From: Thermodesulfobacteriota bacterium
GTDB taxonomy: Bacteria > Desulfobacterota > QYQD01
DNA length: 64,000 bases
Assembly (NCBI GenBank): GCA_040754095.1
Contig: JBFMFO010000002.1
Location: 73,853-137,852, forward strand
Reading direction: 5' to 3'
Positions 10,282 to 38,452 of this stretch are shown here, in pieces. A program made the translations under genes and the position numbers. Below the pieces are notes generated by a model. That model worked only from the letters and a program-made list of their open reading frames with translations, made no database searches and was not told the DNA's origin. The stretch's first letter is position 1; every line of letters starts with the position of its first letter.

Positions 10282-12540
10282 ATGGACAACGAACCCAAAA
10301 CCTTGCAGGAGATATTAGATGATATTGCACTCAAGGCTATAATGCTGACCCCGGGCAATCTGGTTGAGTTAGGGGAACTCCTCTCCAAGATCGAAGAGGT
10401 TATGGCCTATGATGATACAACCCTCCCGGCAGCTGTAAAGAAGATAGGTAGGGGACTCAAACTTATTATAGAAAAGATCATATTGGGCGAGATACCCGAC
10501 ACGGACGTAGTCTATGAAAAAATAAGCCAGGCCATCTCTATGTTGCAGGATATTTGCAGAGAAAAAGATCATGAGCAGGCCAGCGCTTCTCTTAAAAACT
10601 TTAATGGACTGCTTAAAGAATTAAATCTTCCGGATACGGAAGGGCAAACAGCGGGACAAGATGACATAACAATGGAAGAGGAGGCAACACCTGAAGCTCC
10701 TGTGACCAAAAGCAAACCGGTTATAGACATTACTCAGGATAAAGAATTGCTTACCGGTTTTATTAGCGAGAGCATGGAACATCTTGAACAAATTGAGGTG
10801 GACATCCTCTCCCTTGAACAGTCTCCCGAGGATAAGGACTGCATAAACGCTATCTTTAGACCATTCCATACTATAAAAGGTGTCTCAGGCTTTTTAAATC
10901 TACAGGATATTAACAAGTTAGCCCATGAAACGGAAAATATCCTGGACAGGGCCAGAAACGGCGAACTTTTGATCTCCTCAGAAATTATTGACCTTATCCT
11001 GGACGCCTGTGATGTCCTGAAAAGAATGATAATGGACATAAAAACGGCCTTGGAGACAGGTACATTAGAGCAAAAGGATTACGACCTGGACAGTGTTATT
11101 AGCCGGATAAAGGCCGCACAGGAAGGGGAGGCAGGAAAAGAGGCCGCCTGTCCGGAGTCTAAATTAGTAGGTGAGATACTGGTCGAAAAAGGGGTAGCTG
11201 ATACGGAGGCCATAGATAAGGCCCTGGAAAAACAGCGAGATTCCGGTGAAAAAATCGGGGAGATTATCATCAGAGAGGCCGCTGTTAAACCCAAAGAGGT
11301 CGTCCATGCCCTGCGTGAACAAAAAGCTATGGCCTCCATTGCGTCTGCCGGGACTGCCAATAGCGCCGTCAAGGTGGACATCGGCAAGCTCGATAACCTG
11401 GTAGATATGGTCGGTGAGCTGGTCATCACCCAGTCCCTTATCTGGCAGAATTCCCACGTCCAGGCCATACGGGATCAGAAACTTATGCGTGATTTCTCCC
11501 AGCTAAGCCGTATTACTACTGAGCTACAGAAGACAGCCATGTCATTGCGAATGGTGCCCATAAAACAGACCCTTCAGAAAATGATCCGGTTGGTAAGGGA
11601 TCTGGCCAAAAAATCTGAAAAACAAGTTGATCTTCAGATGAGCGGTGAGGATACAGAGATCGACCGCAATATGGTGGACGCCATTTACGATCCCTTGGTG
11701 CATATGATACGTAACTCTATAGACCATGGCATTGAGATGCCGGATGAAAGAGCAGCTAAAGGCAAGCCGGCCACCGGCACCATATGGTTAAGGGCTTATC
11801 AAAAAGGCGGTAACATTGTGATTGAGATCGAGGATGACGGACAGGGCCTGAACCGCGAGAAGATATTAAAAAAGGCAAAGGAAAAGGGATTGATTAAAAA
11901 CACCGAGGGGCTTTCCACATTTGAAATTGATAATCTTATATTCCAGGCCGGATTTTCTACAGCCGATAAGATAACCGATGTCTCCGGCCGGGGCGTAGGG
12001 ATGGATGTAGTAAAGAAAGCCATAGAGAAGTTGCGCGGCAAGGTGGAGATAAATTCGCGTCCGGGACAAGGTTCTACATTCACCATTAAGGTTCCGCTTA
12101 CCCTGGCTATTATCGACGGCATCATAGTAAAGGTAGGGGTGGAACGTTATATAGTGCCGACAGTGGTCATTAAAGAGACTATAAGGCCGCGGCAGGAAGA
12201 ATATAGCACTGTCCATGGCAAGGGCGAGATGATTAAGGTCAGGGGAAATCTTATCCCGTTAGTAAGATTATATAAGATGTTTGATATTGATGCCGAACAT
12301 AAAGACCCTTGCGAGTCCCTGGTAGTTGTGGTTGAAAACGAAGGACGGCAGAAATGCCTGCTGGTTGATGACCTCCTGGGCAAACAGGAAGTGGTCATCA
12401 AGAGTCTCGGAGACCACATGAAAAATGTCAGAGGACTGGCTGGAGGGACTATTTTAGGAGACGGAAAAGTAGGGTTGATTTTAGATATAAACGGCATATT
12501 TAGTGTGGCTGAAGAACAAAATTTGGGGATGCTGCATTAA
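10282..12540 (+). CDS. cheA: chemotaxis histidine kinase CheA with an extra N-terminal domain and an inserted MshEN-like tandem motif
   Basis: Hpt box FRPFHTIKG, dimerization domain, HATPase (GRGVGMDVV G2 box), C-terminal CheW-like P5 domain; 752 aa. Confidence 0.9.
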   Translation: MDNEPKTLQEILDDIALKAIMLTPGNLVELGELLSKIEEVMAYDDTTLPAAVKKIGRGLKLIIEKIILGEIPDTDVVYEKISQAISMLQDICREKDHEQASASLKNFNGLLKELNLPDTEGQTAGQDDITMEEEATPEAPVTKSKPVIDITQDKELLTGFISESMEHLEQIEVDILSLEQSPEDKDCINAIFRPFHTIKGVSGFLNLQDINKLAHETENILDRARNGELLISSEIIDLILDACDVLKRMIMDIKTALETGTLEQKDYDLDSVISRIKAAQEGEAGKEAACPESKLVGEILVEKGVADTEAIDKALEKQRDSGEKIGEIIIREAAVKPKEVVHALREQKAMASIASAGTANSAVKVDIGKLDNLVDMVGELVITQSLIWQNSHVQAIRDQKLMRDFSQLSRITTELQKTAMSLRMVPIKQTLQKMIRLVRDLAKKSEKQVDLQMSGEDTEIDRNMVDAIYDPLVHMIRNSIDHGIEMPDERAAKGKPATGTIWLRAYQKGGNIVIEIEDDGQGLNREKILKKAKEKGLIKNTEGLSTFEIDNLIFQAGFSTADKITDVSGRGVGMDVVKKAIEKLRGKVEINSRPGQGSTFTIKVPLTLAIIDGIIVKVGVERYIVPTVVIKETIRPRQEEYSTVHGKGEMIKVRGNLIPLVRLYKMFDIDAEHKDPCESLVVVVENEGRQKCLLVDDLLGKQEVVIKSLGDHMKNVRGLAGGTILGDGKVGLILDINGIFSVAEEQNLGMLH

Positions 12541-12683: not shown

Positions 12684-13064
12684 ATGCCGGCAGATAAGAA
12701 CATGAGAATATTGGTGGTTGATGACTTTAATACCATGCGCCGTATAGTAAAAAATATTCTGAAACAACTGGGATTCGAAAATGTAGGCGAGGCCGAAAAC
12801 GGTCAGGAGGCGCTTGAGGTCTTGAAAAAAGAAAAATTTGACTTCATCATAACCGACTGGAACATGCCGGTTATGACCGGTCTTGATCTGCTTAAGGCGA
12901 TCAAGGCAGACGCCGCATTAAAAGACCTCCCAGTAATGATGGTGACTGCCGAGGCGCAGCAACAGAATATCGTGGAGGCGGTTAAGAATGGGGCCAGCAA
13001 CTATATCGTCAAGCCATTTACGGCCGAGGTTCTGGAAGAAAAGATAAACAAGATATTTAAGTAA
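12684..13064 (+). CDS. cheY: chemotaxis response regulator CheY
   Basis: 126-aa single receiver domain; DD...D...K phospho-acceptor pattern ([16 protein letters not shown]). Confidence 0.85.
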
Positions 13065-13068
13065 TTTG

Positions 13069-13893
13069 ATGTTTGACGACCTTACCGATAACGAATTCGA
13101 GCTCTTCAGTAAGCTCATCTATACCAAGGCTGGCATTAACCTCCACACAGGCAAGAAGGAATTACTGCGCGCCAGGCTGGCCAAAAGGCTGAGAAGCTCT
13201 AATTTTCACAGTTTTCAGGAATATTATGATTACGTGTTGCAGGACAAAAGTGGGGAGGAACTGGTTCGGCTGCTGGATAGCGTATCCACCAACCTGACGA
13301 GTTTTTTTCGTGAATCCAAACACTTTCAATTCCTGGCAGATGAGGCACTGCCGGGCCTGCTTGCAGATAAAAAAAGGGGCGGAAGGATAAGGATCTGGAG
13401 CGCCGGTTGTTCATCGGGAGAGGAGCCTTATTCTCTTGCAATAACTATTTTAGAACATAAGGCAGGCATCCCGGCGTTGAACTTAAAAATATTGGCAACC
13501 GATATATCTACAAGGGTCTTAGCTACAGCCGAGCAGGGGATATACCCGGAAGAACGATGCAAGGATATTAATACTGATATCCTGAAAAAATACTTTCAAA
13601 AAGGACAGGGCCGGTGGCAGGGATACGTCCAGGTTAAGCCTGTAGTCAGGAACTTCATCCAGTTTATGAGATATAACCTCATGGAACCATGTCCATGTAA
13701 GGAACCTATGGACATAATTTTTTGCCGTAATGTGATGATCTATTTCGATAAGAACACACAGGAAAAAGTAGTAAACGGTTTTTATTCGGCGCTAGGTGAA
13801 GGCGGCTACCTTTTTATCGGGCACTCAGAAAGCCTGACGGGTATAAAGCATGCCTTTAAATATGCGCGCCCGACTGTCTATCAGAAAAAATAG
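13069..13893 (+). CDS. cheR: chemotaxis protein methyltransferase CheR
   Basis: CheR N-terminal helical domain plus SAM-dependent methyltransferase domain (IWSAGCSSGEEPYS); start taken at the ATG at 13069. Confidence 0.9.
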   Translation: MFDDLTDNEFELFSKLIYTKAGINLHTGKKELLRARLAKRLRSSNFHSFQEYYDYVLQDKSGEELVRLLDSVSTNLTSFFRESKHFQFLADEALPGLLADKKRGGRIRIWSAGCSSGEEPYSLAITILEHKAGIPALNLKILATDISTRVLATAEQGIYPEERCKDINTDILKKYFQKGQGRWQGYVQVKPVVRNFIQFMRYNLMEPCPCKEPMDIIFCRNVMIYFDKNTQEKVVNGFYSALGEGGYLFIGHSESLTGIKHAFKYARPTVYQKK

Positions 13894-13907: not shown

Positions 13908-14393
13908 GTGGCTAGCAAATTCGTCGTCGGTATTGCAGATATGTGCGTAAGCAAAGACCCCGCGGCTATTTTAATTACTTACTCTCTGGGGTCCTGCATA
14001 GGCGTGTCCATTTATGATCCTGTAGTCAAGGTGGGGGGGTTGCTTCATCTAATGCTTCCTGAATCAAAGATAGCCCCGGACAAGGCAGAAAAAAATCCGT
14101 GCATGTTTGCAGATACAGGCGTGCCCTTGCTTTTCAAAGAAGCATATAAATACGGCGCTGATAAAAAACGCATAATAATTAAAATAGCGGGCGGGGCACA
14201 GGTTATGGATGCCAGCGGCTTTTTCAATATCGGCAAACGTAACTACATGGCTCTTCGCAAGATCTTTTGGAAAAATGACGTTCTTATAAGCAAAGAAGAC
14301 ATAGGTGGTAATGTCAACCGCACTATGCGCCTTGAGATAGGCACGGGGCGCGTCTATCTCAAGGTATCGGACAGCGGAGAGATAGAGCTATGA
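13908..14393 (+). CDS. cheD: chemoreceptor glutamine deamidase CheD
   Basis: VGIADMCVSKDPAAILITYSLGSCIGV CheD signature with catalytic Cys; GTG start. Confidence 0.85.
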   Translation: MASKFVVGIADMCVSKDPAAILITYSLGSCIGVSIYDPVVKVGGLLHLMLPESKIAPDKAEKNPCMFADTGVPLLFKEAYKYGADKKRIIIKIAGGAQVMDASGFFNIGKRNYMALRKIFWKNDVLISKEDIGGNVNRTMRLEIGTGRVYLKVSDSGEIEL

Positions 14394-15223
14394 AAGATCT
14401 CAGGACCATTACTAAAGATATCAAGGAATTACCGCCACTTCCGGAAGTGGCACAGAAGGTATTTTCCTTGCTAAACGATCCCAAAAGCAACGTTCAGGAT
14501 ATGGTCAAGGTTATACAGCTTGACCAGGCTATGACGGCTAATATATTGAAATTATGCAATTCTGTATACTTCGGTCTGAAGAGAAAGATCAGTTCTTTGC
14601 AGGAGGCCCTGGTCTTGCTCGGCCAGAAAAATTTACACGAAATCATTATGACAGACAACAGCGGTAAATACTACCAAAGGGCCGGTGCAGGTTATAGCCT
14701 GGGGAAAGGCGAACTCTGGAGACATTCTGTGGCCTGCGCCCTTCTTTCTCAGATATTGGTGCGAAAAACAGGGTTGCCTGAAGATCCTTTTTTATTTACC
14801 GCCGCTCTCCTTCACGATATCGGCAAGGTGATACTCAGCACTTACGTCAAGACAGAATATGATCAAATAATCAGGTTGGTTAAAGAACAACAATATCCCT
14901 TTTTGCAGGCAGAAAAAGAGATTATCGGGATTGATCACGCCGAATTAGGGGGATGGATCGCCGAGGAATGGAATTTTCCCGGGGCCCTAGTAGAAGCGAT
15001 TGCCCAACATCATACGCCTGATACGGAGAATTACATCTCCTGTATCGTTCATCTCTGTAATCTGATGACTATCATGATGGGTATCGGCACGGGTTATGGC
15101 CTAGCTGACTATGGGAAAGATGCTGTCATGAAAAAATTGGGTCTGAAAGAAAGACATCTCGAATCATGTATGGTTGAACTATGGCATGAACTCCAGAAGG
15201 CGGAAGACCTGCTTAAATGTTAA
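14390..15223 (+). CDS. HDOD domain protein
   Basis: HD-related output domain pattern (LHDIGK, HAELG); 277 aa; overlaps the cheD stop by 4 nt, so probably co-transcribed. Confidence 0.75.
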   Translation: MKDLRTITKDIKELPPLPEVAQKVFSLLNDPKSNVQDMVKVIQLDQAMTANILKLCNSVYFGLKRKISSLQEALVLLGQKNLHEIIMTDNSGKYYQRAGAGYSLGKGELWRHSVACALLSQILVRKTGLPEDPFLFTAALLHDIGKVILSTYVKTEYDQIIRLVKEQQYPFLQAEKEIIGIDHAELGGWIAEEWNFPGALVEAIAQHHTPDTENYISCIVHLCNLMTIMMGIGTGYGLADYGKDAVMKKLGLKERHLESCMVELWHELQKAEDLLKC

Positions 15224-15267: not shown

Positions 15268-15647
15268 ATGGCCTTTAATGTCTTAATAGTCGATGACTCT
15301 ATGGCCATGCGCAGCGTTATACGCAAGGTCATCTCGATTTCCGGCTTCGATGTCGGGGCCTTTTTTGAGGCCGGCAATGGAAAAGAAGCGCTCGAAGTCC
15401 TTAATGGGCAGTGGATAGACCTGGTTCTAAGTGATATTAATATGCCGGAGATGGATGGCCTCACTTTTGTAAAAAAGATGAGAGAGCATGAGATCTATAA
15501 AAACATCCCGGTAGTTATGATAACCACTGAAGGCTCCCAGGCCTGTATAGATGAAGCCATGTCATTGGGGGTTAAGGGGTATATCCAGAAGCCGTTTATG
15601 CCTGAGGTAATTAAGGAAAAACTCGAAGAGATTATGGAGAAGACCAG

Positions 15648-15651
<4 letters not shown>
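15268..15651 (+). CDS. CheY-like single-domain response regulator
   Basis: 127-aa receiver domain (VDDS...SDINMP...QKPF). Confidence 0.8.
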
Positions 15652-17188
<1,537 letters not shown>

Positions 17189-17658: not shown

Positions 17659-18750
17659 ATGGAGACGGCAGCCAGTATGGATATTATGGATATGATAGTT
17701 GGGGAAAGCGAACCAATTAAAAGAATAAAAGAGCTTGTTAAGCAAATAGTCGATACTGATCTGACGGTTGTAATTTACGGAGAAAGCGGTGTCGGCAAGG
17801 AATTAGTGGCCCGGTCCTTACATTTCCAATCCCACCGCAAAAATTCCCCATTTGTTAAGGTCAATTGTGCCGCCCTTCCCTCCGAGCTCCTGGAAAGTGA
17901 ATTATTTGGCTATGAAAAAGGTGCCTTTACCGGGGCTGACGGGCTGAAGCCCGGTAAATTTGAACAGGCAAATGACGGTACCATATTTTTAGACGAAATT
18001 GGAGATATGCCGTTAACATTGCAATCAAAATTGTTGCAGGTACTTCAGGATGGCGAATTCTCAAGAATTGGCGGCAAAAAGGATGTCAGGGTGAATACCT
18101 GGGTAGTCTCAGCAACTAACCACGACCTGGAAAACGAGGTTAAGCGAGGTCTTTTTAGAGAGGATCTTTTTTATCGTTTAAATATTATAAAAATCCTGGT
18201 GCCTCCCCTCCGCGACAGAAAGGAAGATATACCTATTCTGCTCAATCACTTCCTCTCACGCTATTGTAGCCAGTTTAATTCTAATTTCGTTCCGGATAAA
18301 GAAGTACTGGATATATTTTTTAGTTACCACTGGCCTGGAAATGTGCGGGAAATGGAAAACTACGTAAAAAGACTCCTGGTCCTGAATGATTGGGAACAAT
18401 TAAAGGAAGAAATTCTCGATAAAATCCATGCGGCACCCACAAGAAGGGATATGGCCATAGCGGCACCGGATGTAAAAGCAAAAGAAAAAATATCTCAGGA
18501 TGTTCTGGAGAAGTTAATAGATCTGGGTGAAGAAAAAGAGAGGATTATCTCCCTTCCTTCCCTTAAAGAAATCAAAAAACAGGCCCTCCTGAAGATCGAA
18601 AAAGAGGTGATAGAGGAGGTTTTAAAGAGAACGAACTGGAATAAGAAACTGGCCGCACGACATCTTAAGATCAGCTATAAGGCCCTGCTTTATAAAATAA
18701 AGGAGGCGGACATAAAAAAACCACCCGATTTAGAAAAGGAAAGAAAATGA
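17659..18750 (+). CDS. sigma-54-dependent transcriptional activator (bEBP) lacking an N-terminal sensory/receiver domain
   Basis: AAA+ domain starts near residue 20 (GESGVGKE Walker A; GAFTGA motif as EKGAFTGA; Walker B DEIGD); C-terminal Fis-type HTH (AARHLKISYKALLYKIKE). Confidence 0.85.
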   Translation: METAASMDIMDMIVGESEPIKRIKELVKQIVDTDLTVVIYGESGVGKELVARSLHFQSHRKNSPFVKVNCAALPSELLESELFGYEKGAFTGADGLKPGKFEQANDGTIFLDEIGDMPLTLQSKLLQVLQDGEFSRIGGKKDVRVNTWVVSATNHDLENEVKRGLFREDLFYRLNIIKILVPPLRDRKEDIPILLNHFLSRYCSQFNSNFVPDKEVLDIFFSYHWPGNVREMENYVKRLLVLNDWEQLKEEILDKIHAAPTRRDMAIAAPDVKAKEKISQDVLEKLIDLGEEKERIISLPSLKEIKKQALLKIEKEVIEEVLKRTNWNKKLAARHLKISYKALLYKIKEADIKKPPDLEKERK

Positions 18751-19043: not shown

Positions 19044-20555
19044 ATGCATTTAGATGGTGAAAGAAGAAGACATTTTCGTATCCCGTTACGGCTTCCCGTC
19101 CGTCACCGTGTTGCCGGCAGAGATTTTGAAGACAGTATTGCCTTAGATATTCATCAAAACGGGGCATTTATTTTATCGGAAGAACTACCGGACGTTGGAA
19201 CCGCCATAAATCTGAATTTTACCATTCCGGAGACGGACCAATTAGTCAGAGTCAAGGGCGACGTACGCTGGGTCATTGATCGTCAACCCAATCATGAATC
19301 CGGTATGGGCATTAAATTTGAAAAACCTGTATCCTTTGTAATGCCCATAGAATTAGTCTCACAATATATGGATAATAACCTGGCGGCATTTGTTGATTAT
19401 GCCCGGCATCCGTTTTACCCTGAGATTCAACAACTCAAAAATCTGAACAACCACGTCATTAACTCGGTAAATAATGGGGTTATTATATTAGACGAGGAAT
19501 TTGTAATCAGAAATTACAATCCAAAACAATGTGCTGCATTCATACCGGAAAAGCAAAAAGTAATCGGCCGACCCATCTGGGAGGTGAATAACCTATTTAA
19601 TTTACGGTATCAGGAAAAGACATTTAAAGACATATTGCAGGAAGTCTTAGGTGGTAAGAGCTATAGAATTAAAAATGTTTCTTATGAACCACCTCTAGAA
19701 GAATCAAATAATCACTACTTAGACTTGGAACTAAGGCCCGTTATCGAAGCTAGTGGCGCTGTTTCAGGTATAATAATCGTAATCCAGGACGTTTCAAAGG
19801 AAAGGCAATGGGCCTTACGGGAAAAAGAGCTTGAATCAGTCCTTATTGAACAATCCAGGCATTCTTCCGTCGGACTGATAATAAACGGATTATTGAATAA
19901 CATGGTCAACCCTCTTTCTTCCATACAAGGCAGGCTTGAATTGTTAAATCTCGAGATGCAGGCCGGTAAAAATAACTTGGCAGATTCTTCTCGTAGCACC
20001 CAGGTCGAAGATACGCCGAGACGTGGGATAGACAACCTTGATAAGTATATAGAAGGTCTGAGGATGATCGGTCATAATGTACAAACTCTCTCTGATCTGT
20101 GTCGTAATTTCATGGCCAGGATAAAGAAAGAGCAGGACACGATGCCCCGGCTTCTTAATCTGAATGATATTATTATGAACGAGATTATGTTCCTGGAAGC
20201 AAACCAGAAATTCAGGTATGAAATTAACAAAAAGTTGGCCCTAGCAAAAGACCTTCCCTTTATATGGGGGGCTTATATCGATTTTTCACAACTTATTTTC
20301 AATCTCTTAGACTATTGCATCAAGGCCATGAACCTTTCTGATAAAAAAGAGCTTTTTATTTCCACCGGATTTGAAAATAATATGATTTGTCTGGATATAA
20401 GACATTCGGGCACGACTTCAAAACAAGCGCCACAAAACGATTTTCTGCTATGTCTTCTTAATCTTTTAAGAAAAAAATACAATTTTGACCTATCCGTCCA
20501 GGAACAATATAGCAACACCATATTTTCTTTACGTATCCCGGTTTCTGAAGATTAA
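19044..20555 (+). CDS. PilZ domain - PAS - degenerate histidine-kinase-like protein
   Basis: N-terminal PilZ motifs (RRRHFRIP, DIHQNG, GMGIKF), central PAS-like region, HisKA-like helix (NNMVNPLSSIQG) and a HATPase-like C-terminus without clear G1/G2 boxes. Confidence 0.6.
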   Translation: MHLDGERRRHFRIPLRLPVRHRVAGRDFEDSIALDIHQNGAFILSEELPDVGTAINLNFTIPETDQLVRVKGDVRWVIDRQPNHESGMGIKFEKPVSFVMPIELVSQYMDNNLAAFVDYARHPFYPEIQQLKNLNNHVINSVNNGVIILDEEFVIRNYNPKQCAAFIPEKQKVIGRPIWEVNNLFNLRYQEKTFKDILQEVLGGKSYRIKNVSYEPPLEESNNHYLDLELRPVIEASGAVSGIIIVIQDVSKERQWALREKELESVLIEQSRHSSVGLIINGLLNNMVNPLSSIQGRLELLNLEMQAGKNNLADSSRSTQVEDTPRRGIDNLDKYIEGLRMIGHNVQTLSDLCRNFMARIKKEQDTMPRLLNLNDIIMNEIMFLEANQKFRYEINKKLALAKDLPFIWGAYIDFSQLIFNLLDYCIKAMNLSDKKELFISTGFENNMICLDIRHSGTTSKQAPQNDFLLCLLNLLRKKYNFDLSVQEQYSNTIFSLRIPVSED

Positions 20556-28690: not shown

Positions 28691-29887
28691 TCAAATCAGC
28701 CCCATTAACCTAAATATCCGCTCGAACCTCATCTCCCAGGTATGTTCACGGCGGGCGCGCTGATACCCGCTCTTTCTTATGGCCTCAGCCTTTTCAGGAT
28801 TGGAAAGAAGGTCTTGAATCTTTGAAACAAGATCTTCAAAGTCGGTGTATATCACAACATCTGTGCCCAAATCATAGAATCGCTCTAATTCCCGGTTATA
28901 CTCGGTCAGATACAGCCCACCGCTCATAGGAATCTCAAAATCCCTGCCCTTGAGGCAGTAGGTATCCTTATGGCCCACTACTCCGCCAAAACCGAGGTTT
29001 ATTTTGCTTCTAGAATACATGCGCACCATGTCTTCCGTGGATAGCGGACCATTCGGCCAGCCGTAGCCGTAGGGTTCAACCTTAATGCCCCGCTCTCTAA
29101 GCCTTTCAATGACTTCAGGACGGTTTCCATAACACTGCCCTACAAAGGACACATCAATAGTTCTATCCACGTCGTATGGCCTGTGAATTTCAGGGTTCGC
29201 GCCTTCAGGGAGGTAAACAGGAAGGGCGCCTTCCACACAATACTTTTTCAGCGCATCCTCGGTGCTTGTCCAGCAAAGGTCAAAATAACGACAGATGTCT
29301 CTGGACCCCATGGCCTGGCCCTGTCTGATTTTTCCCACAAAATGTTCCTTGTCGTTCAGGGCGAGATTAAGCATGGGAACGCCAAAGGCCCTTGGTGCCT
29401 GCATGGTCTCCGGTGTCACCAGTTCGCCGGAAAGATAAGCGAAGATTATATCGATCTTATCTTCTTTGATCCATCGTCCCATGCGTTTGACAAGATGCCT
29501 GTTCATCTCTGCCTTTACCGAAGTATGCCAATCTTTTTGCTGATGGTTGAATTCCTCAAACCAGTCGTAATGTCGAACAGCGCCGAATTTTGCAAGAGCA
29601 GGCTTCAGGGATTCGTTCTCCCAGTTATAGTGATGATAAATAGCAAAGATGTGCAACTCACCCTTTGGTTTCGCTTTTAAATGGGGAAATTTTTGTATTA
29701 TGGTCTGCCGGATAGTTCGGTCATCAGGTATGGTGAGATGGCGTGATGCAAATATCGAATTATAATGGTCGAGTTCCCGTTCCAGCCTCTTCTTGTTCTT
29801 CCAGGCCCTGAATTGTTTTCTAAGCTTTTTTAGCGATTCACCCTTCATGACTTTTGTCTTAAGATGCTCAGGATCTACCAAACACAT
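28691..29887 (-). CDS. CgeB-like glycosyltransferase (GT1-like C-terminal domain)
   Basis: C-terminus resembles CgeB / Glyco_trans_1_2 (FEIPMSGGLYLTEY...RARREHTWEMRFE); 398 aa. Confidence 0.5.
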   Translation of the reverse strand: MCLVDPEHLKTKVMKGESLKKLRKQFRAWKNKKRLERELDHYNSIFASRHLTIPDDRTIRQTIIQKFPHLKAKPKGELHIFAIYHHYNWENESLKPALAKFGAVRHYDWFEEFNHQQKDWHTSVKAEMNRHLVKRMGRWIKEDKIDIIFAYLSGELVTPETMQAPRAFGVPMLNLALNDKEHFVGKIRQGQAMGSRDICRYFDLCWTSTEDALKKYCVEGALPVYLPEGANPEIHRPYDVDRTIDVSFVGQCYGNRPEVIERLRERGIKVEPYGYGWPNGPLSTEDMVRMYSRSKINLGFGGVVGHKDTYCLKGRDFEIPMSGGLYLTEYNRELERFYDLGTDVVIYTDFEDLVSKIQDLLSNPEKAEAIRKSGYQRARREHTWEMRFERIFRLMGLI

Positions 29888-30603
29888 GTCCGATTGGCGA
29901 ATTCACTATTTTCGTAATGATAGGACCTTGACTTACGATTGAATAAGAATGGATCAAGAGAAGAACCGATATCCAGTAAGATATTGTTAGGGTTAACTAA
30001 CCACAACTCGTATATCAATATTTCGGAAAGAGGGCCGGCGGCAAACAGGAATATGGTATTTTTATAGGTACTCCCTTTCAGATCAAGCAGGGCTTTGACG
30101 TAATCTCTGTTTTTTTCCCAAAAAACGACACAATTCCCTGGAATGGGGATAAAATCTTTAATGGGTATAAGTTCTTCTAGTTTTTTAATCTTTGCCTTAC
30201 TGTTAGTGCAAATCACGATATCCTTTTTCGACGCGATGAGCGTCTTGAAAAAATGTTCCTGAAAGAGTGGACAGTTGGCGTTTACCCAAATATTGGAGAA
30301 AGTCAGATTCTCGCGTCCTGTTCGAATCTGGGCCAGCAAGTAGTCGTGATTGACCTTATCACAGCAGGTGCAGGAGATGCCGTAGAAGAAGCCGGGGTCG
30401 CTACACAGCAGGGCTTTTCGCAGGTCAGCCCGGAAAATAAGATTCTTATCTTGCTTGTAGAGCCAGCCGTCTTTATTGCCAATGGTATTGTTCTTAAGTA
30501 CATTTGCCTCCCCGTCGGCATATCTCGAAAGGGCCATGGAGTCCGATTCCATAATCATCTTCATTAGTTCAAAAAAATCGCTTTTAAAGTCCTGCTTCAT
30601 CAT
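29875..30603 (-). CDS. putative GT-D (DUF1792-like) glycosyltransferase
   Basis: SRYADGE motif resembling the R-x-GDGE signature of DUF1792/GT-D enzymes; sits inside the glycan cluster; AT-rich. Confidence 0.35.
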   Translation of the reverse strand: MMKQDFKSDFFELMKMIMESDSMALSRYADGEANVLKNNTIGNKDGWLYKQDKNLIFRADLRKALLCSDPGFFYGISCTCCDKVNHDYLLAQIRTGRENLTFSNIWVNANCPLFQEHFFKTLIASKKDIVICTNSKAKIKKLEELIPIKDFIPIPGNCVVFWEKNRDYVKALLDLKGSTYKNTIFLFAAGPLSEILIYELWLVNPNNILLDIGSSLDPFLFNRKSRSYHYENSEFANRTCVW

Positions 30604-31670
30604 TTTTTCTCAGTTTTTTCCTTTTTATCGATAAATTCTGATAGAATTCGAACGATTTTTTGGGACGCATCTCCGTCCCCGTAAGGAGACTTTTTAATAA
30701 ATTTTAGGGGCGTCTTGGCCCATTCAATAACTCTTTCAATATCTTTATCTGCCAAATGTCCCAAACCCATCTCAATCACTTCCGGTCGTTCTGTCTTTGC
30801 TCTGACGATTAACATCTTCTTATTGAAGCAGGTAGCTTCTTCTTGGATACCGCCGCTATCCGATATGATAAAACGAGCTTGATTTATTAACCTCAACATG
30901 TCCGGATAACCAATCGGTGGGATAACACGGATATTATCGGCTGTGAGTCTCGATCGATGCTTAGTAACGTTAGGATTTGGGTGTATAGGAAAGATCAGTT
31001 CCAGTTCCGGATTCTTGGAAGCAACTTTTTGCAATTCATCAAATAGCTGTGCCATGTGAGCATGGTTCTCTCTGCGATGTATCGTGACTAAAACCTTATT
31101 CGATTGATCCACAGTTAAGTGGAGACGATCCTTAAAATAATTAACAGCATCAACAATGGTATTTCCTACCAGATATATGTTCCGTGCACCACTATTGACG
31201 AGATTATCGTAAGCCTGTTTGGTTGGGGCGAAATTGAGACAGGCTACTTGAGTAATTAGGGTTCTATTCAACTCCTCGGGATAGGGACTTTCCATATCGA
31301 AGGTGCGTAATCCAGCTTCTACATGGGCGACCTTGATATTATTATAAAAGGCCATTTGTGCAAGTGCCCAGGCTGTTGTAGTATCTCCCTGAACAATAAC
31401 CATATCAAAATGATGATTAGAAAAAAGCCTTTCAGCGGCTTGACAGATCTTGATAAAACTCATTCCCAAAGAGTTATGTTTGCCACTTCCGCAGAAAACA
31501 TCAGCAAAACTAAAATCAGGTGATGGCACTAATTCTTTGACGTCTTCGTATAAATCGAGCTGTTGCCCGCTAAAAAGTGTTTTAAATGGTAACGCCTGCG
31601 CTTTCAGCTCATTAATTACCGGAAAAAGTTTGATTATCTCAGGTCTAGTACCAAATGCCACGAGTATCAT
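30600..31670 (-). CDS. wecB: UDP-N-acetylglucosamine 2-epimerase (non-hydrolysing)
   Basis: MILVAFGTRPEIIKLFPVI N-terminus and epimerase_2 family pattern; 356 aa. Confidence 0.85.
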   Translation of the reverse strand: MILVAFGTRPEIIKLFPVINELKAQALPFKTLFSGQQLDLYEDVKELVPSPDFSFADVFCGSGKHNSLGMSFIKICQAAERLFSNHHFDMVIVQGDTTTAWALAQMAFYNNIKVAHVEAGLRTFDMESPYPEELNRTLITQVACLNFAPTKQAYDNLVNSGARNIYLVGNTIVDAVNYFKDRLHLTVDQSNKVLVTIHRRENHAHMAQLFDELQKVASKNPELELIFPIHPNPNVTKHRSRLTADNIRVIPPIGYPDMLRLINQARFIISDSGGIQEEATCFNKKMLIVRAKTERPEVIEMGLGHLADKDIERVIEWAKTPLKFIKKSPYGDGDASQKIVRILSEFIDKKEKTEKK

Positions 31671-32410
31671 AATAGAATAGGCTTATACCCTCGTTCGATT
31701 TCATGTCTGACGACCCGCCAAAACTCCTTTGACTTATCAGAACTACAGCTAATAGCTACCTTGTCCACACCCCGTTCCGGTTTTACTGATCCCCATAAAG
31801 ACCTATCGTTTTCCGGATGAGGGGGACAGGCAACACGAATATTATGACGCTGGAGCATGGCGCAAAAATGAATATCTTCACCGAAACTCCGGAGAAGAGG
31901 CTCTTCATCCCAGAAATATCTAGCCCATTCCCGCCGCAAAAACCAGCTATGACCAACTACGTCCACATATTCCGGATGAGTGTTCATAGCCTCCCAGCCC
32001 ATCCTGGGTTTTTCCGTCTTCAGTTCGTTACTCGATAAAAAACGGAGGCCTATCGTTCCACACATTACATTTTTGCTATCGACGTAGCTTAAACAATTTT
32101 CAAACCAACGTTCCCCCGGCATCGTATCATCATCAAAAATGCAAACGTATTCTCCCTCCATACATGAGGCCATGGAAAACCGTGGGATAATACCAAAGTT
32201 GTAATCACAGATAATCTTTTTTATATGTTTATCATTTTTAAAACTCACCAGTTGTTTTCTTTCCAGGAAACCTAACTTCTTAGGTGGGCTATTATACCAT
32301 AGTACAACTTCGTGAGGACGGATGCTTTGATCAAGTACTCGCTCAACCTGTTCCTCTAAGAACTGTGGTCTGCACCACGCCGTTAAGATAACAGAAATTT
32401 TAGTTTTCAT
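31667..32410 (-). CDS. GT-A fold glycosyltransferase (family 2-like)
   Basis: ISVILTAWCRPQFLEEQVERVLDQS N-terminal GT2 pattern and DxD (IFDDD). Confidence 0.45.
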   Translation of the reverse strand: MKTKISVILTAWCRPQFLEEQVERVLDQSIRPHEVVLWYNSPPKKLGFLERKQLVSFKNDKHIKKIICDYNFGIIPRFSMASCMEGEYVCIFDDDTMPGERWFENCLSYVDSKNVMCGTIGLRFLSSNELKTEKPRMGWEAMNTHPEYVDVVGHSWFLRREWARYFWDEEPLLRSFGEDIHFCAMLQRHNIRVACPPHPENDRSLWGSVKPERGVDKVAISCSSDKSKEFWRVVRHEIERGYKPILL

Positions 32411-33021
32411 GTGTGATGAATCCGTATTATGTCGTCTTTGACATCAAAAATTGAGTTTGAGTACTTTTCCCCCACAAACTCTCTGAGTTGAGACAAGGTG
32501 GGGTAACCATTTTGTCCGGTGAAACTCCTCGCATCATCAATTAAAATGACATGATTCTTAATAGGATGGCTAAAAATGTATTGCAGTTCCTTCATTATTG
32601 GTGTGTCTAAATCTCCCTTACCGGTTTCTCCACCTGAATAATGTGCATCAAGCCAAAACAGAACCGGTTCTTTAATATTGCTTAAAATTTTCGGTAAAAT
32701 ATATCCGCTATCGCCATAATACAGACAAATATGTCTGTGACCCGCAAACTTTTTAACTGCTTTTTGGTACAAAGGTTCATATACTTCTATAGAGTGTATA
32801 GATGTAAAGTAATTTCTCATCGACTCAACCATATCTCCATAATACGTTCCGGTTTCTACCATAATTCTAATTCTAAACCTATCCGCATATTTTTTTACTA
32901 CCCATTGTTTTACTACATGGGGAGGGGGGATAGGTCTTCCTTTAATTATCCAAAACAATCTATCCCATACTTTATTAGGCAATATTCTTTTTATCTCTTG
33001 TTTAAAATTTCTATAACCCAC
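32407..33021 (-). CDS. class I SAM-dependent O-methyltransferase (TylF/MycF / CmcI-like)
   Basis: VETGTYYGD SAM-binding-like motif and LDAHY...G pattern; 204 aa; AT-rich. Confidence 0.5.
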   Translation of the reverse strand: MGYRNFKQEIKRILPNKVWDRLFWIIKGRPIPPPHVVKQWVVKKYADRFRIRIMVETGTYYGDMVESMRNYFTSIHSIEVYEPLYQKAVKKFAGHRHICLYYGDSGYILPKILSNIKEPVLFWLDAHYSGGETGKGDLDTPIMKELQYIFSHPIKNHVILIDDARSFTGQNGYPTLSQLREFVGEKYSNSIFDVKDDIIRIHHT

Positions 33022-34170
33022 TTAATACATCCTCTTTTCATATACCTTTAAAACTCTATCCACTGTCACTTCCCATGTATTATGGAGCGCTGTTTCTAAG
33101 GCTTCCTTCCCCATTTTGGTCCTGACTTCCTCATCCATCATCAAGGCAATTCTACTGGAGATTTTATCTGCATCGTCTGTATTCTCAAGAATAAAACCAT
33201 TAATCCCCTCTTTCACCAAGTCCTTTGCTCCCACGTTTCCACTGATTATGACTGGCAAGGAAGCCGCCATGGCTTCGAGTACGGACATCCCAAAGGTGTC
33301 AAATTTCGAAGGCATGGAAAAGATATCGCTGGCCGGATAAATTTTATCGAGCAGCTCTTTCTGAACAATCCCTGCAAAAACGACTTGGTCTTTTATTCCT
33401 AAATTGCGAGCCAACCTTTTGTACTTCTCATCATCACCTTTTCCTACGACCAGTAATTTAACCCTTTCCGAGGGGTGTCTCAACTTGAAGTTAGCTAACC
33501 CCATCATAAGCTTATCAAGGCCCTTAATATCAAAATTCATAGAAACAAACAAAATCACCCGATCTGATAAATCTATGCCAAATTTCTTTCTTATCTCCTG
33601 GCGGCAATGCTGCCGATCAACCCCTTGAAATCTTTGGATATCAACACCGGGAGGGATGACATGGACTTTGTCTGGATTAATATCTTTATATTCTTGCAGG
33701 AATTTCTCCTTGGCCAGGTTGGATACGGCCAGAAATCTCCGGCACCTTTTGTTTGTGACCAGTTTTTTTTCGGCCCATGTCGTTGCGTAATCAAAGAGGC
33801 TCACGCGTTTTTTACGCACTTCACGGACCCAGATTCGGTGCGGGATACCGTGCATGGTAAATATGTCGGCATTAAATATCCTGTCATGGGCGTGGACCAA
33901 GTCGAAGACCATTTTTGATATCTTGCGGTCTGCGAAATACGCGAAACTGACTGTGGTCAGGAATTTGGGGAGACCAATAACCGGAACGTGATGAAAGGTA
34001 ATATGTTCTGAGTTTTTTTGCCATTTATTAGCAAAAACATGCACTTCAAATCGCCTGTCCTGAGCAATCCTTTCCGTCAATTCAGCGACAAAACCTTCCG
34101 CCCCACCTACCAAGCCGTATTTTGGAATAACAACGGCTATTTTGCGGGGATTAAGAGGATTAATTAACAT
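33022..34170 (-). CDS. glycosyltransferase family 4 (GT-B, RfaG-like)
   Basis: GT4 N-domain plus Glycos_transf_1 C-domain (E-x7-E region; FGMSVLEAMAASLPVI). Confidence 0.8.
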   Translation of the reverse strand: MLINPLNPRKIAVVIPKYGLVGGAEGFVAELTERIAQDRRFEVHVFANKWQKNSEHITFHHVPVIGLPKFLTTVSFAYFADRKISKMVFDLVHAHDRIFNADIFTMHGIPHRIWVREVRKKRVSLFDYATTWAEKKLVTNKRCRRFLAVSNLAKEKFLQEYKDINPDKVHVIPPGVDIQRFQGVDRQHCRQEIRKKFGIDLSDRVILFVSMNFDIKGLDKLMMGLANFKLRHPSERVKLLVVGKGDDEKYKRLARNLGIKDQVVFAGIVQKELLDKIYPASDIFSMPSKFDTFGMSVLEAMAASLPVIISGNVGAKDLVKEGINGFILENTDDADKISSRIALMMDEEVRTKMGKEALETALHNTWEVTVDRVLKVYEKRMY

Positions 34171-34177
34171 TAGAGGG

Positions 34178-35131
34178 TTAAAGGAGTCTTCTCTTACCGA
34201 CCAAATAATAATTATTTGGTGAATGCCGAAGTTGCCAATTACACCATTCTATATCAGTTCTGGTATCTATCCAGTTTCTAAAGAACTCGATGTTATTTAC
34301 TTTTTCGAACTGATGTTGATAGGCGATCATAAATGTCTTAAATTGAGATGTTAAAGAGAGAATAGACTCTCTAAGGTCCATCGGCACCTCACTAATTGAC
34401 CAAGTGGCGATGAACATAGAATCCATCCCTTCAATATGTACTGGAATGATATCCATCATCTGTTCTAAATCCGAGAGGCAAATTACGCCATTTTCGGCGT
34501 CATTGAATGATTCGACTGAGTGGACTAATATGGCTGTGGATTTAAGATAGAACTGTTGCAATGCAGAAAAAGGGGGGAGGTCAAAAATAACATATTTCCC
34601 CCTGAATCCCAAATTGTGAAGTAATCTGCACATGCCTCCATAACCACCGCCAAATTCAAGGACAAAATCCATGTCATTAACATGCGTTTCGTTTTGTTCT
34701 TCAAATTTAGCTAAGCAGTAGGCCTGATGAATCAAGTTTCCGCTACTAACTGGATATCTCCAATATGGTATTGGATATCCAGTTGTAGATTCCTTAATTG
34801 CTTCACGCCAACGGCTTCTCCATTCAGGATGATTCTTAAGATATTTTAATTCTATTTTTACATATCTGGCATTCGTTACAAACATCGTCTGTACGATAAC
34901 GTCCCAGCGGAGGAACTCTCTGGGGTCATCATTTATGACTAATTCTCTCAGACGGTTTATATTCTTTAACCATGCTTCTTCGCAGGGTAATAAATTTGCC
35001 ATCTTCAATTGTGAAAGTCCATGAAAAGTGGCTTTAAGTTCGCTAACTAATTCTTTTTCCCTGTTGGTTGGTGGCGCAAGTGGTTTATCAAATGCGACCG
35101 ATACTAATTTGGAAATGAGATTCTTCAACAT
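34178..35131 (-). CDS. putative SAM-dependent (sugar O-)methyltransferase
   Basis: LEFGGGYGG glycine-rich SAM-binding motif I followed by an acidic residue at the end of beta2 (IFD). Confidence 0.4.
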   Translation of the reverse strand: MLKNLISKLVSVAFDKPLAPPTNREKELVSELKATFHGLSQLKMANLLPCEEAWLKNINRLRELVINDDPREFLRWDVIVQTMFVTNARYVKIELKYLKNHPEWRSRWREAIKESTTGYPIPYWRYPVSSGNLIHQAYCLAKFEEQNETHVNDMDFVLEFGGGYGGMCRLLHNLGFRGKYVIFDLPPFSALQQFYLKSTAILVHSVESFNDAENGVICLSDLEQMMDIIPVHIEGMDSMFIATWSISEVPMDLRESILSLTSQFKTFMIAYQHQFEKVNNIEFFRNWIDTRTDIEWCNWQLRHSPNNYYLVGKRRLL

Positions 35132-35137
35132 ATATGC

Positions 35138-36418
35138 CTAGTTTTTATTCCGTATTACTATGGTGACTCCATAATTAAGACGCCATAAAATAGTCATCAT
35201 AGCGAAAATAGCGTAAAGCACAATCGCAGGTGGGCCACTGTGTATGTTTTCAAACATCCCCTGGATAAAGACGGCAACAAATGCAGCCATGAGACAAAGT
35301 CCCCAGCTTTTTATAAAATCGTCTTTTCCATATTTCATTGTCTTCCATCCCATTCGGACAAATGCAAATATTATGTAAAGATACAATGCAAGGCCTACAA
35401 GACCGAGTCTCGCGGCCACATCAAGTAATAAGTTATGAGGAGCAGCAGTAGGCGTTTCTTGTCTATATTCGATGGGTATTCTTGCGTTATATCTATTTAA
35501 AAGATCCTTATTATCATAAGTTTGCATTCCAAAACCGATACCGGTGATTGGGTAATCTTTAACGATTTCGATGAAGTTATAAGTTATGTTTATTCTAGGA
35601 TCATTCCGTATTTTACTTACGATGCTTTGCGTGGCTAAACGATGCCTTACAGGCAAAAATATCATAGCAACTAACAAAAACATAATAAAAATGACCACTG
35701 TTTTTTTATTTTTCAAAAATAATATAGGCAGAGAAAACACGATGGCGAGCAATGTACCTATCGTTTGTGTTAAAAGGGTGGCCAAAGACGTTACTATTAG
35801 GCAAATGGCGAGGAGAGTTTTACGATATATGCTTATCTTCTCATGGAGATATTGTAATGATAAGATAATGGCAAATAGGGTTACAATACCAATAATGTTA
35901 ATTGGAATTTCAGTGAAGTCAAGGCCAAGTCGTGTTGTTATATTATTTCCCAAGAAGAAGTAAAAATAAGTGATTGCCCAGATCGAAAAAGCCGCTGCGG
36001 ATAAGATTGTGACCCACATTAACCCCACAAGCCGTTTCTTAGCATTAAAAAAATTGACCAATATATAATAGAAAGTTAAATACTTTAGTAAATGTGCATA
36101 AAAGTCATGGATGCTATTTGGGTTGTTGAGCGCAAAGAACAGGCCAACAAAGACCCAAATGGTAAAGAGCGCAAAGGGCATACTCAATGGCATCTTGAAG
36201 GAAAAACTAACCTTTTTAAAAACTAACAGCAGAAGTACGATAAGGGCCGAAAGATAAAAACAAGCTTCCTTTATCGTGGTTGTGTGGGGAAAGGGGTTGA
36301 AGAATAAGAATATTCCCATTAATATGGGAATGCTTTGTTTAAAAAGTTCGAATATTCTATCGCCTTTTTTTACCTTTTCCATTGGTTTTAAGTCACTGAC
36401 AGCTTTGTCATACAACAT
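35138..36418 (-). CDS. O-antigen ligase / polymerase family membrane protein (WaaL/Wzy-like)
   Basis: 426 aa with about 10-12 hydrophobic helices and a periplasmic loop region; sits in the glycan cluster. Confidence 0.7.
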   Translation of the reverse strand: MLYDKAVSDLKPMEKVKKGDRIFELFKQSIPILMGIFLFFNPFPHTTTIKEACFYLSALIVLLLLVFKKVSFSFKMPLSMPFALFTIWVFVGLFFALNNPNSIHDFYAHLLKYLTFYYILVNFFNAKKRLVGLMWVTILSAAAFSIWAITYFYFFLGNNITTRLGLDFTEIPINIIGIVTLFAIILSLQYLHEKISIYRKTLLAICLIVTSLATLLTQTIGTLLAIVFSLPILFLKNKKTVVIFIMFLLVAMIFLPVRHRLATQSIVSKIRNDPRINITYNFIEIVKDYPITGIGFGMQTYDNKDLLNRYNARIPIEYRQETPTAAPHNLLLDVAARLGLVGLALYLYIIFAFVRMGWKTMKYGKDDFIKSWGLCLMAAFVAVFIQGMFENIHSGPPAIVLYAIFAMMTILWRLNYGVTIVIRNKN

Positions 36419-36576
36419 ACTGAATAATCTCTCTTTTCTAAAAAAGCACTCAGCTTAGACCGTGAGAGGTTTCTTATCATATTTGATCAAAAGATGCATC
36501 ATTTTTGCCTCCATGATAGGTTATGGTATATAATTTTGGGACCTATGAAACCCGACAAGATTTAATAACCAAGTGT

Positions 36577-37359
36577 ATGATAGAAAAGATTCCCCTTTCA
36601 ATCGCCATAATAACCAAAAACGAGGCAGAAAACCTACCCGGATGTCTGAAAAGCATAAGCTTTGCCGGGCAGATTGTTGTGGTGGATTCCGGCAGCACCG
36701 ACGACACGGTAAAAATTGCAGCAGACTTTGGGTGCGACGTATTCATCGAACCTTGGCGGGGATTCGGTCTCCAAAAGCAATTTGCCATCGATAAATGCAG
36801 AAATAAATGGATACTCGTGCTGGATGCGGATGAACGAATACCACAGGAAACCGCTCTTGCTATAAAACATATTGTTTCTAAAGATTCAGGAAGTATTGCC
36901 GGGTATAGCTTCCCCAGAAAAAACTACTTTCAGGGGCGATGGATCAGGCACTCCGGATGGTGGCCGGACCGGGTGGTCAGGCTTTTCCAGAAGGATTACG
37001 GTCAAATGTCCCAGGCAAAGGTCCACGAATCCGTAGTGGTCAATGGTCCCGTGCGGGAGGTGGATGTGCCCATAGAGCATTATACCGAAAGTCGCTTTAG
37101 TCAAATTTTACTTAAGATAGACCATTATTCCACCTTGGCCGCCCAAGAGGCATTTGACCAAGGCAGAAAAGCCTCGGTCTGGTCTGCTGTCTTCCGCGCA
37201 TCTCTTACATTTTTTCAGGACTATTTTTTAAGATTCGGGGTTCTGGATGGCGCACAGGGATTCACCCTGGCCATTACCGATTCGGTGAATAAATTCTTTA
37301 AATATGCCAAGTTGGCTGAATTAAACAGACAGGCCAAACTGAATCGGCATAATCGCTGA
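36577..37359 (+). CDS. glycosyltransferase family 2 (LPS core, WaaE/KdtX-like)
   Basis: LSIAIITKNEAENL ... VVDSGSTDDT ... LDADE GT2 motifs; start taken at the ATG at 36577. Confidence 0.8.
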   Translation: MIEKIPLSIAIITKNEAENLPGCLKSISFAGQIVVVDSGSTDDTVKIAADFGCDVFIEPWRGFGLQKQFAIDKCRNKWILVLDADERIPQETALAIKHIVSKDSGSIAGYSFPRKNYFQGRWIRHSGWWPDRVVRLFQKDYGQMSQAKVHESVVVNGPVREVDVPIEHYTESRFSQILLKIDHYSTLAAQEAFDQGRKASVWSAVFRASLTFFQDYFLRFGVLDGAQGFTLAITDSVNKFFKYAKLAELNRQAKLNRHNR

Positions 37360-37390
37360 CTATAGGTGTAGTCACTGGTCATTAGTCAAA

Positions 37391-37496
37391 GTCAATTTTT
37401 CACGCGAAGACGCAAAGACCGCGAAGACAACGTATTGTTATCAAAGAAAAAATTTTGCGTCCTTGGCGGTTTTGCGTGATATTTTGGATTTTTTAG
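37391..37496 (+). repeat. family A short variant (two TIR-like ends, ~105 bp)
   Basis: cacgcgaagacgcaaagaccgcgaag ... ttttgcgtccttggcggttttgcgtgatatttt. Confidence 0.6.
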
Positions 37497-37529
37497 AAAC
37501 CGTCAACTCTGTGAACTCTGTGGTAACAA

Positions 37530-38444: not shown

Positions 38445-38452
38445 GTGGATAG

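Follow-up and report, generated by a model that had tools for sequence, protein, structure and literature searches.

The 64-kb stretch of Thermodesulfobacteriota DNA analysed here (contig JBFMFO010000002.1, positions 73,853 to 137,852; hereafter the window) carries a chemotaxis operon whose first gene, cheA, encodes a histidine kinase with an unusual segment between its phosphotransfer domain (Hpt, or P1) and its dimerization domain (P3). This segment is almost certainly an MshEN_N module, a 53-residue receptor for cyclic di-GMP (c-di-GMP, a second messenger) that was first defined in Vibrio cholerae MshE (PMC5013675), and it may give CheA an input of its own from that messenger. The gene and the parts of its product are laid out as follows, residue numbers being those of CheA.

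10282..12540, + strand: cheA, intact open reading frame of 752 residues; probable pseudo-Hpt, Hpt (P1), MshEN_N, P3, P4 and P5, without P2
10282..10626, + strand: N-terminal five-helix domain, residues 1-115 (AlphaFold2 model and weak profile matches)
10732..11058, + strand: Hpt (P1), residues 151-259 (Pfam PF01627, 57 bits, residues 155-247; AlphaFold2 helices 151-259)
11059..11163, + strand: P1-to-module linker, residues 260-294, with a helix at 269-281 and then disorder that includes Pro291
11164..11235, + strand: MshEN_N motif 1, residues 295-318, LVGEILVEKGVADTEAIDKALEKQ, with L1, V2, G3, G10, I17, L21 and Q24; helices alpha1 and alpha2
11236..11250, + strand: spacer RDSGE, residues 319-323, five residues as is canonical for MshEN
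11251..11322, + strand: MshEN_N motif 2, residues 324-347, KIGEIIIREAAVKPKEVVHALREQ, with K1, I2, G3, A10, V17, L21, R22 and Q24; helices alpha3 and alpha4
11323..11367, + strand: module-to-P3 tether, residues 348-362, rich in Ala, Ser and Gly, KAMASIASAGTANSA (sequence and AlphaFold2 model)
11362..12507, + strand: kinase core, with P3 at residues 361-421, P4 (HATPase_c) at 470-607 and P5 (CheW-like) at 613-742 (Pfam PF02895, PF02518, PF01584)

The protein is a CheA by its Pfam matches for P1, P3, P4 and P5 (Hpt, H-kinase_dim, HATPase_c and CheW) together with the phospho-acceptor His196; NCBIfam CheA models match as well, and a full-length search returns CheA homologues of equal length at 95% identity. 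In the full-length AlphaFold2 model, which has a mean predicted local distance difference test score (pLDDT) of 72.5, the module appears as a folded unit with a disordered linker on either side, residues 283-293 before it and 351-364 after it, each with pLDDT below 50.

An earlier interpretation made from the letters alone, the sequence-only reading, had drawn attention to the span 11161-11321 and described there two 24-residue units of MshEN type with exactly five residues between them, lying between the Hpt domain, with its histidine in FRPFHTIKG, and the dimerization domain. The span begins one codon early (at K294) and stops one base short but is otherwise exact. Both units are present with the claimed spacing, at residues 295-318 and 324-347, and they stand where that reading put them, with the Pfam Hpt match (155-247) on one side and H-kinase_dim (361-421) on the other; His196 is encoded by nucleotides 10867-10869, within residues 192-200. 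A relaxed regular expression for the tandem has this CheA site as its sole match in the six frames of the window and matches 0/20,000 shuffled CheA sequences, whereas a single-motif expression matches 0.6% of the CheA shuffles. The first P3 helix (MVGELVITQSL...DQ; window ~11395-11470) also fits the relaxed single-motif expression in about 30 homologues. Since single motifs arise both in shuffles and in P3 helices, only the tandem arrangement is specific, and counting by single motif would over-call CheAs.

The NCBIfam model NF053729.1 ("c-di-GMP motif, MshE-related", 53 positions) matches CheA residues 297-347 above its cut-off of 38 bits, scoring 46 for the full-length protein and 51-52 when the segment is searched by itself; the same search returned weaker matches to models of the MshEN-bearing proteins NfrB, EpsG and PilB, and 42/42 CheA modules of our alignment match NF053729 at E ≤ 1e-6. 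When a 100-residue piece of CheA is compared with the PDB by phmmer, the GSPII domain of Thermus thermophilus PilF is retrieved at E 1.5e-16 and MshE (5HTL) at 1.7e-3. A profile of the 42 CheA segments retrieves PilF GSPII (1e-23), Geobacter PilB (4e-9), MshE 5HTL (7e-8) and, more weakly, Myxococcus PilB, its significant matches being limited to these MshEN/GSPII proteins.

The predicted fold leads to the same family. An AlphaFold2 model of residues 286-360 (mean pLDDT 81, core ~90) contains four helices, 296-303 and 308-321 from motif 1, then 325-332 and 337-359 from motif 2, the last of them ending at residue 356 or 359 depending on the model. The best 13 Foldseek matches in the PDB are all PilF GSPII or MshE structures, 11 of the 13 with c-di-GMP bound, mostly at a root-mean-square deviation (rmsd) of 1.1-1.8 Å over 55-59 residues and a probability of 1.00, and the ligand-bound structures among the Foldseek matches are 25-36% identical to the CheA module. 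Compared with the N-terminus of MshE, as the sequence-only reading had suggested, the bundle of four helices deviates by 1.3 Å across 56 residues. The C-terminal alpha/beta subdomain of the full domain (MshEN_C, or T2SSE_N1) is absent, as a mere ~15 residues separate Q347 from P3, and the protein fits the class that Wang et al. (2016) described as "MshEN_N only, no T2SSE_N1 domain" (PMC5013675). With the NCBIfam score above its cut-off, the profile matches in the PDB and a predicted fold that overlays c-di-GMP-bound MshE and PilF, we have little hesitation in calling this segment a genuine MshEN_N (the N-subdomain of GSPII), as had been proposed. Over CheA modules the sole Pfam signal is a weak one for DUF4388/PatA_N (P0045 residues 283-334, P0068 residues 357-410 and the cheA of locus L002), which hints at a relationship in sequence between PATAN-associated helices and the MshEN motif.

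P2, which binds CheY and CheB, is usual in CheAs without being universal. Pfam detects no P2 domain in this CheA or in its isolated 100-residue piece at E ≤ 10 and finds nothing between residues 247 and 361 of the protein; the P1-to-module linker (residues 260-294) is too short to hold one. Most of the module-less relatives of about 900 residues, such as P0007 and P0008, combine the N-terminal domain with a pair of Hpt domains and some 100 residues of low-complexity linker, again with no P2, and P0007 is 71% identical to our CheA over the core. The whole clade is therefore without P2, and its P1-P3 tether is made either of disorder or of MshEN_N beads. Hence, the idea of a module standing where P2 usually sits is right as to location but not as to displacement: we reject an evolutionary replacement of P2 by the module for this clade, given that the module-less relatives lack P2 too. 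The same relatives, with a disordered linker in the module's place, offer natural controls for any effect of the module.

The module recurs in a sizeable family. The full-length search matched thousands of CheAs, the nearest of them proteins from metagenome-assembled genomes labelled Desulfovibrionales, Thermodesulfobacteriota, Desulfobulbaceae, Desulfofervidus and Dissulfurirhabdus. The module stands immediately ahead of P3 in 58 of the best 120 matches, and about 45 of the module-bearing homologues share the architecture of the query (~730-775 residues, one module), while a group of 830-860 residues has two or three modules in tandem. Across 59 aligned CheA modules, G297, L300, A314, Q318, G326, R345 and Q347 are invariant, and positions 2, 17 and 21 of the motifs are occupied by L, I, V or M throughout, even though segments from outside the query's own subgroup are only 30-49% identical. 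Position 1 is freer in motif 1 (R in 18, P in 17, K in 9, L in 7) than in motif 2 (K in 49, R in 8). Among the related CheAs P0045, P0048, P0068, P0076, P0083, P0088, P0094 and P0113 and the representatives P0147-P0231, some have two or three tandem modules, in which this position is often a canonical R or K, and others have a pair of Hpt domains together with a pair of modules.

A degenerate DNA pattern for motif 2, checked on the window and then run on metagenomes, found at least 120 loci. Among the matches listed, the module is present in 119/120, and 62 lie in CheA open reading frames with the same Hpt-module-core layout; in 56 of the 58 such frames with adequate upstream sequence, a motif 1 that shows G3, L21 and Q24 is found independently, at spacers of 6 (32 frames), 7 (17), 8 (4) or 5 (3) residues. 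In a representative library of 1.84 billion proteins, 14,799 match the CheA-module profile at E ≤ 1e-3, a ranking that is dominated by many-repeat proteins and gives no count of module-bearing CheAs; among its best 150, a CheA kinase core is present in 19 of 149 newly fetched proteins, some with two Hpt domains and two modules. The strongest library matches (P0121-P0146) are not CheAs; they have 4-10 MshEN_N-like stretches in tandem, and some of these proteins reach ~1,160 residues. Taken as CheAs, the family has more than 100 members, mostly from Thermodesulfobacteriota and from sediment or freshwater metagenomes. Pfam-based annotation does not see the module, and such proteins are filed as ordinary CheAs in databases.

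The manner in which MshEN_N holds its ligand is known from MshE, where the backbone amides of Gly3 and of the next residue read guanine O6 and N7, positions 2, 17 and 21 build two triangular hydrophobic clusters, and Gln24 holds the ribose-phosphate (PMC5013675). Gly residues G11 and G40 of MshE are essential, position 1 contributes base stacking only (a change at R9 costs less than 5-fold), and the isolated MshEN_N (residues 1-62) binds c-di-GMP with a dissociation constant (KD) of 0.35 µM (PMC5013675). Both CheA motifs keep Gly3 (G297, G326) and Gln24 (Q318, Q347), and the hydrophobics at 2, 17 and 21 are kept as V296/I311/L315 in motif 1 and I325/V340/L344 in motif 2. These are conservative changes with respect to Leu, and in PilF, Ile at positions 17 and 21 instead of Leu weakens binding just 2.4-fold. 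The turn glycine at position 10 is present in motif 1 (G304) and is Ala in motif 2 (A333), where AlphaFold2 still predicts the alpha3-alpha4 turn.

At position 1 CheA has L295 in motif 1 and K324 in motif 2, and the replacement of the lead Arg had been taken as a reason to doubt binding. That reason falls away in the light of PilF: its GSPII-B domain natively carries K167 and L196 at position 1 and binds with a KD of 6 nM, its K167L mutant with 2 nM and its K167R mutant with 150 nM (Neissner et al. 2024, PMC11731258). The same authors widened the MshEN consensus at this position to (R/K/L), within which both CheA residues fall (PMC11731258). GSPII-B is rigid both in the apo and in the holo form, and the ligand unwinds only the first turn of alpha1. 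In CheA, alpha1 starts at V296 and is preceded by Pro291 and disorder in the AlphaFold2 model, and for that reason we do not expect a helix-extending N-cap. From the contact residues that it keeps, the CheA module is likely to bind c-di-GMP.

We propose, with a rough probability of 0.6, that the MshEN_N module in the P1-P3 tether of this P2-less CheA binds c-di-GMP and so controls kinase output. Each protomer would bind one c-di-GMP in the manner of MshE and PilF. Recognition of the two guanines would fall to the backbone amides of G297-E298 and G326-E327, with L295 and K324 stacked on the bases; the hydrophobic clusters would consist of V296/V340/L344 and of I311/L315/I325, and the ribose-phosphates would be gripped by Q318 and Q347. 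The tether from module to P3 is 11-15 residues long in the family, and in the Thermotoga maritima P3-P4-P5 structure the N-terminus of P3 is adjacent to P4; from the short tether and this adjacency we expect the two modules of a dimer to lie beside the ATP-binding domains, at the docking site of P1. The ligand would remodel the first turn of alpha1, to which the P1 linker is joined in CheA, and a filled site should therefore change the access of P1 to P4 and/or CheY. Such a change could be one of P1 reach or orientation, or a new docking surface could arise; the bound dinucleotide would remain partly exposed. As a result, autophosphorylation or phosphotransfer would be tuned directly by the second messenger, in a direction that is not predictable. 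For the module having a functional effect on kinase output, taken by itself, we see the odds as about even.

Two other forms of coupling were considered and set aside. Rigid coupling through an alpha4 continuous with the P3 helix would be compatible with the isolated model, in which alpha4 runs to residue 359, but is not supported by the full-length model, where residues 351-364 have low confidence. A folding switch of the whole domain upon ligand binding is contradicted by PilF GSPII-B, in which nothing beyond the first turn of alpha1 changes.

The N-terminal region that the sequence-only reading had set apart as an extra domain of about 150 residues is real: five helices are predicted (residues 8-20, 27-42, 50-67, 74-94 and 97-113, at pLDDT ~75-88), followed by a disordered linker at 120-147. 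A family profile of this domain finds weak matches in the PDB to T. maritima CheA P1 (2ld6 and 1tqg, E 0.015-0.058), and hhalign places it in register with the Hpt of the same protein (E 0.018, probability 2.6%), an alignment that is suggestive only. The domain is probably a degenerate Hpt/P1 without the phospho-histidine; the nearly invariant Glu38 aligns with the phospho-His column, and the domain may be a phosphomimetic pseudo-P1.

Downstream of cheA, which is the first gene of its operon, Pfam assigns the following genes, and a second group lies farther on.

12684-13064, + strand: cheY
13066-13893, + strand: cheR
13908-14393, + strand: cheD
14390-15223, + strand: HDOD protein
15268-15651, + strand: second receiver (REC) protein
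15648-16115, + strand: CheX-like protein
16136-17188, + strand: cheB
17659-18750: sigma-54 activator without a receiver domain, just upstream of the next gene
19044-20555: PilZ-PAS-histidine-kinase-like protein of 503 residues, with PilZ at the N-terminus

The PilZ domain of the 503-residue protein has RRRHFR, which fits RxxxR, and DIHQNG in place of the expected DxSxxG, an imperfect match. Genes for methyl-accepting chemotaxis proteins (MCPs), CheW or flagella were not found among the window open reading frames that we scanned, the rest of the window consisting of housekeeping and envelope glycosyltransferase genes. Related CheAs occur in three types of neighbourhood: one adjoins FlbD-MotA-MotB-flagellin genes, another is an MCP-CheW-CheA unit, and in Dissulfurirhabdus thermomarina the operon reads CheA-MCP-CheW-MCP-CheR-CheD-HDOD-CheB. 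Near the CheA of 25 metagenomic loci of at least 7 kb, CheY is found in 20, CheR in 16, CheD in 14, HDOD in 12 and CheB in 12. A flagellar chemotaxis pathway is the best fit to this context. The HDOD gene follows cheD in the window, and the order CheR-CheD-HDOD-CheB recurs in D. thermomarina (HDOD at L005 18326-19180); we know of no role for HDOD in chemotaxis. Farther along, a cluster at 28691-39565 on both strands encodes glycosyltransferases of families GT1, GT2, GT4 and GT9, a UDP-GlcNAc 2-epimerase and a Wzy-like O-antigen ligase, and is probably a lipopolysaccharide or exopolysaccharide locus unrelated to the CheA module.

Several observations weigh against control of CheA by c-di-GMP and have to be set beside those that favour it. 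Motif 2 is off consensus at the alpha3-alpha4 turn, with Ala at position 10 instead of Gly and Ala at position 11; in the family, its position 10 varies (K, N, E, A, H or G), position 11 is Lys in most members, and spacers are mostly of 6-8 residues, not 5. PilF GSPII-A does not bind even with the consensus restored, because the site is blocked by a capped, elongated alpha1 and by contacts of its subdomains with each other, and this case implies that a match to the motif is no guarantee of binding. Among the window open reading frames scanned there is no GGDEF, EAL or HD-GYP gene, and we found no c-di-GMP binding data for any CheA MshEN_N in the searchable literature. In the full-length model the module has a pLDDT of 61-74 and is not placed with confidence against P1, P3 or P4, which leaves the coupling mechanism a conjecture. 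Finally, the Pfam T2SSE_N model (PF05157), which the sequence-only reading had proposed as a test, has no match at E ≤ 10 either in full-length CheA or in the isolated 100-residue piece. As that model mainly spans the C-terminal subdomain that is absent here, the missed match is expected, and we do not count it against homology.

The deviations in motif 2 and the variable spacers would suit a module that is a relic, no longer able to bind any nucleotide and kept as a folded spacer or for the docking of a partner protein, much as the non-binding N-terminus of Xanthomonas PilB docks a PilZ protein. Non-binding MshEN/GSPII domains are known (XpsE, PilF GSPII-A and Xanthomonas PilB), complexes of the X. 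citri PilB N-terminus with PilZ appear at Foldseek ranks 14-17, and the PilZ-PAS-kinase-like gene lies about 6.5 kb downstream. However, the X. citri PilB matches reach just 11-12% identity at E ≥ 0.6, as against the 25-36% of the ligand-bound structures, and the known non-binders are altered at precisely the residues that the CheA modules keep invariant, with V, L or A for G3 and H, R or V for Q24; at position 1 they carry S or G. If the module were a spacer and nothing else, there would be little reason for G3 and Q24 of both motifs to stay strictly invariant over more than 100 diverged CheAs, and we regard a relic as doubtful.

Of a different kind is the suggestion that a ligand-loaded MshEN_N acts, from its short tether next to P4, as a ligand-dependent substitute for P2, switching the access of P1 to the ATP site or redirecting phosphotransfer among the two receivers and CheB. 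We consider this unlikely; if true, the level of c-di-GMP would reprogram the chemotactic output at the kinase itself, and not at the motor or the receptors. Still harder to credit is a substitute that would work with or without ligand, as a docking domain for CheY or CheB that speeds phosphotransfer. The module does occupy the P2 position in a P2-less CheA, and the two single-domain receivers and CheB of the operon all need access to P1, yet it is a four-helix bundle and not the alpha/beta fold of P2, the CheA of Aeromonas veronii carries P2 and MshEN_N together, and MshEN_N is not known to interact with a receiver. Clade members with neither P2 nor module make do with a low-complexity linker, which implies that docking at this position is dispensable.

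Least probable of all is that the module senses another cyclic dinucleotide such as 3'3'-cyclic GMP-AMP (3'3'-cGAMP), which Geobacter and related former Deltaproteobacteria use: MshEN binds cGAMP measurably but weakly (KD 330 µM), and the CheA half-sites do differ systematically, motif 2 having K at position 1, a turn without Gly and R345 throughout, but both half-sites keep the Gly-X amide arrangement, which picks out guanine by its O6/N7 and would run into the N6 of adenine, and the data hold no sign of adenine recognition. We retain c-di-GMP control of the kinase as our preferred reading.

The fusion itself has a precedent. Wang et al. (2016) listed from sequence an MshEN_N inside CheAs of the order Hpt-P2-MshEN_N-P3-P4-P5 (PMC5013675; Supplementary Table 4). 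The sequence-only reading was right that a c-di-GMP-type module is present in CheA, though such a combination is not unprecedented. The CheA described here is a P2-less example of a fusion known at the catalogue level, for whose motif an NCBIfam model exists. It differs from the catalogued fusion in the absence of P2, in the extra N-terminal domain (the probable pseudo-Hpt), in the five-residue spacer and in having sisters with several modules or none. Experimental work on any CheA-embedded MshEN_N was not found in the searchable literature. In A. veronii CheA, too, a MshEN_N-only module lies immediately N-terminal to P3 with a similar tether (13-15 residues after Gln24), and position 1 of its motif 1 is likewise not Arg (Met), whereas that protein keeps P2 and has a nine-residue spacer.

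Among the structurally known modules, V. cholerae MshE (PDB 5HTL) shares with CheA the two 24-residue motifs, the five-residue spacer, Gly3 and Gln24, and the hydrophobics at positions 2, 6, 7, 17 and 21. In contrast to MshE, to which it is about 25% identical, the CheA module has no MshEN_C and no secretion ATPase, its host being a kinase; position 1 is L and K here and R and R in MshE, and position 10 of motif 2 is Ala here and Gly in MshE. The best match in both sequence and fold is T. thermophilus PilF GSPII-B (PDB 8PDK; 8PE0 for K167L), at 30-36% identity and an rmsd of 1.1 Å, and its K167 and L196 at position 1 are the mirror image of L295 and K324 in CheA (PMC11731258). PilF differs in having three full GSPII domains, each with its C-terminal subdomain, ahead of a traffic ATPase, and its motif 2 is one residue shorter.

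Direct action of c-di-GMP on histidine kinases has been described for CckA and ShkA, whose receptor sites are unrelated to MshEN_N and lie in the CA domain of CckA and in the Rec1-Rec2 linker of ShkA. In chemotaxis, the messenger is known to enter through receptor methylation (MapZ-CheR1), PilZ-domain chemoreceptors and a phosphatase (PlzC-CheX), with YcgR at the flagellar motor as a fourth input. MapZ-CheR1, the PilZ chemoreceptors, PlzC-CheX, CckA and ShkA all differ from the present case in that none has a dedicated receptor domain within CheA. To a specialist in c-di-GMP the fusion will come as no surprise, yet it is a clean case for direct input of a second messenger into CheA, and the family makes a compact test case, with mostly one module and sometimes two or three, no P2, short linkers and invariant ligand-contact residues. 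Between the messenger that governs the sessile and motile states and the chemotaxis phosphorelay, no link would be more direct than a receptor domain within CheA.

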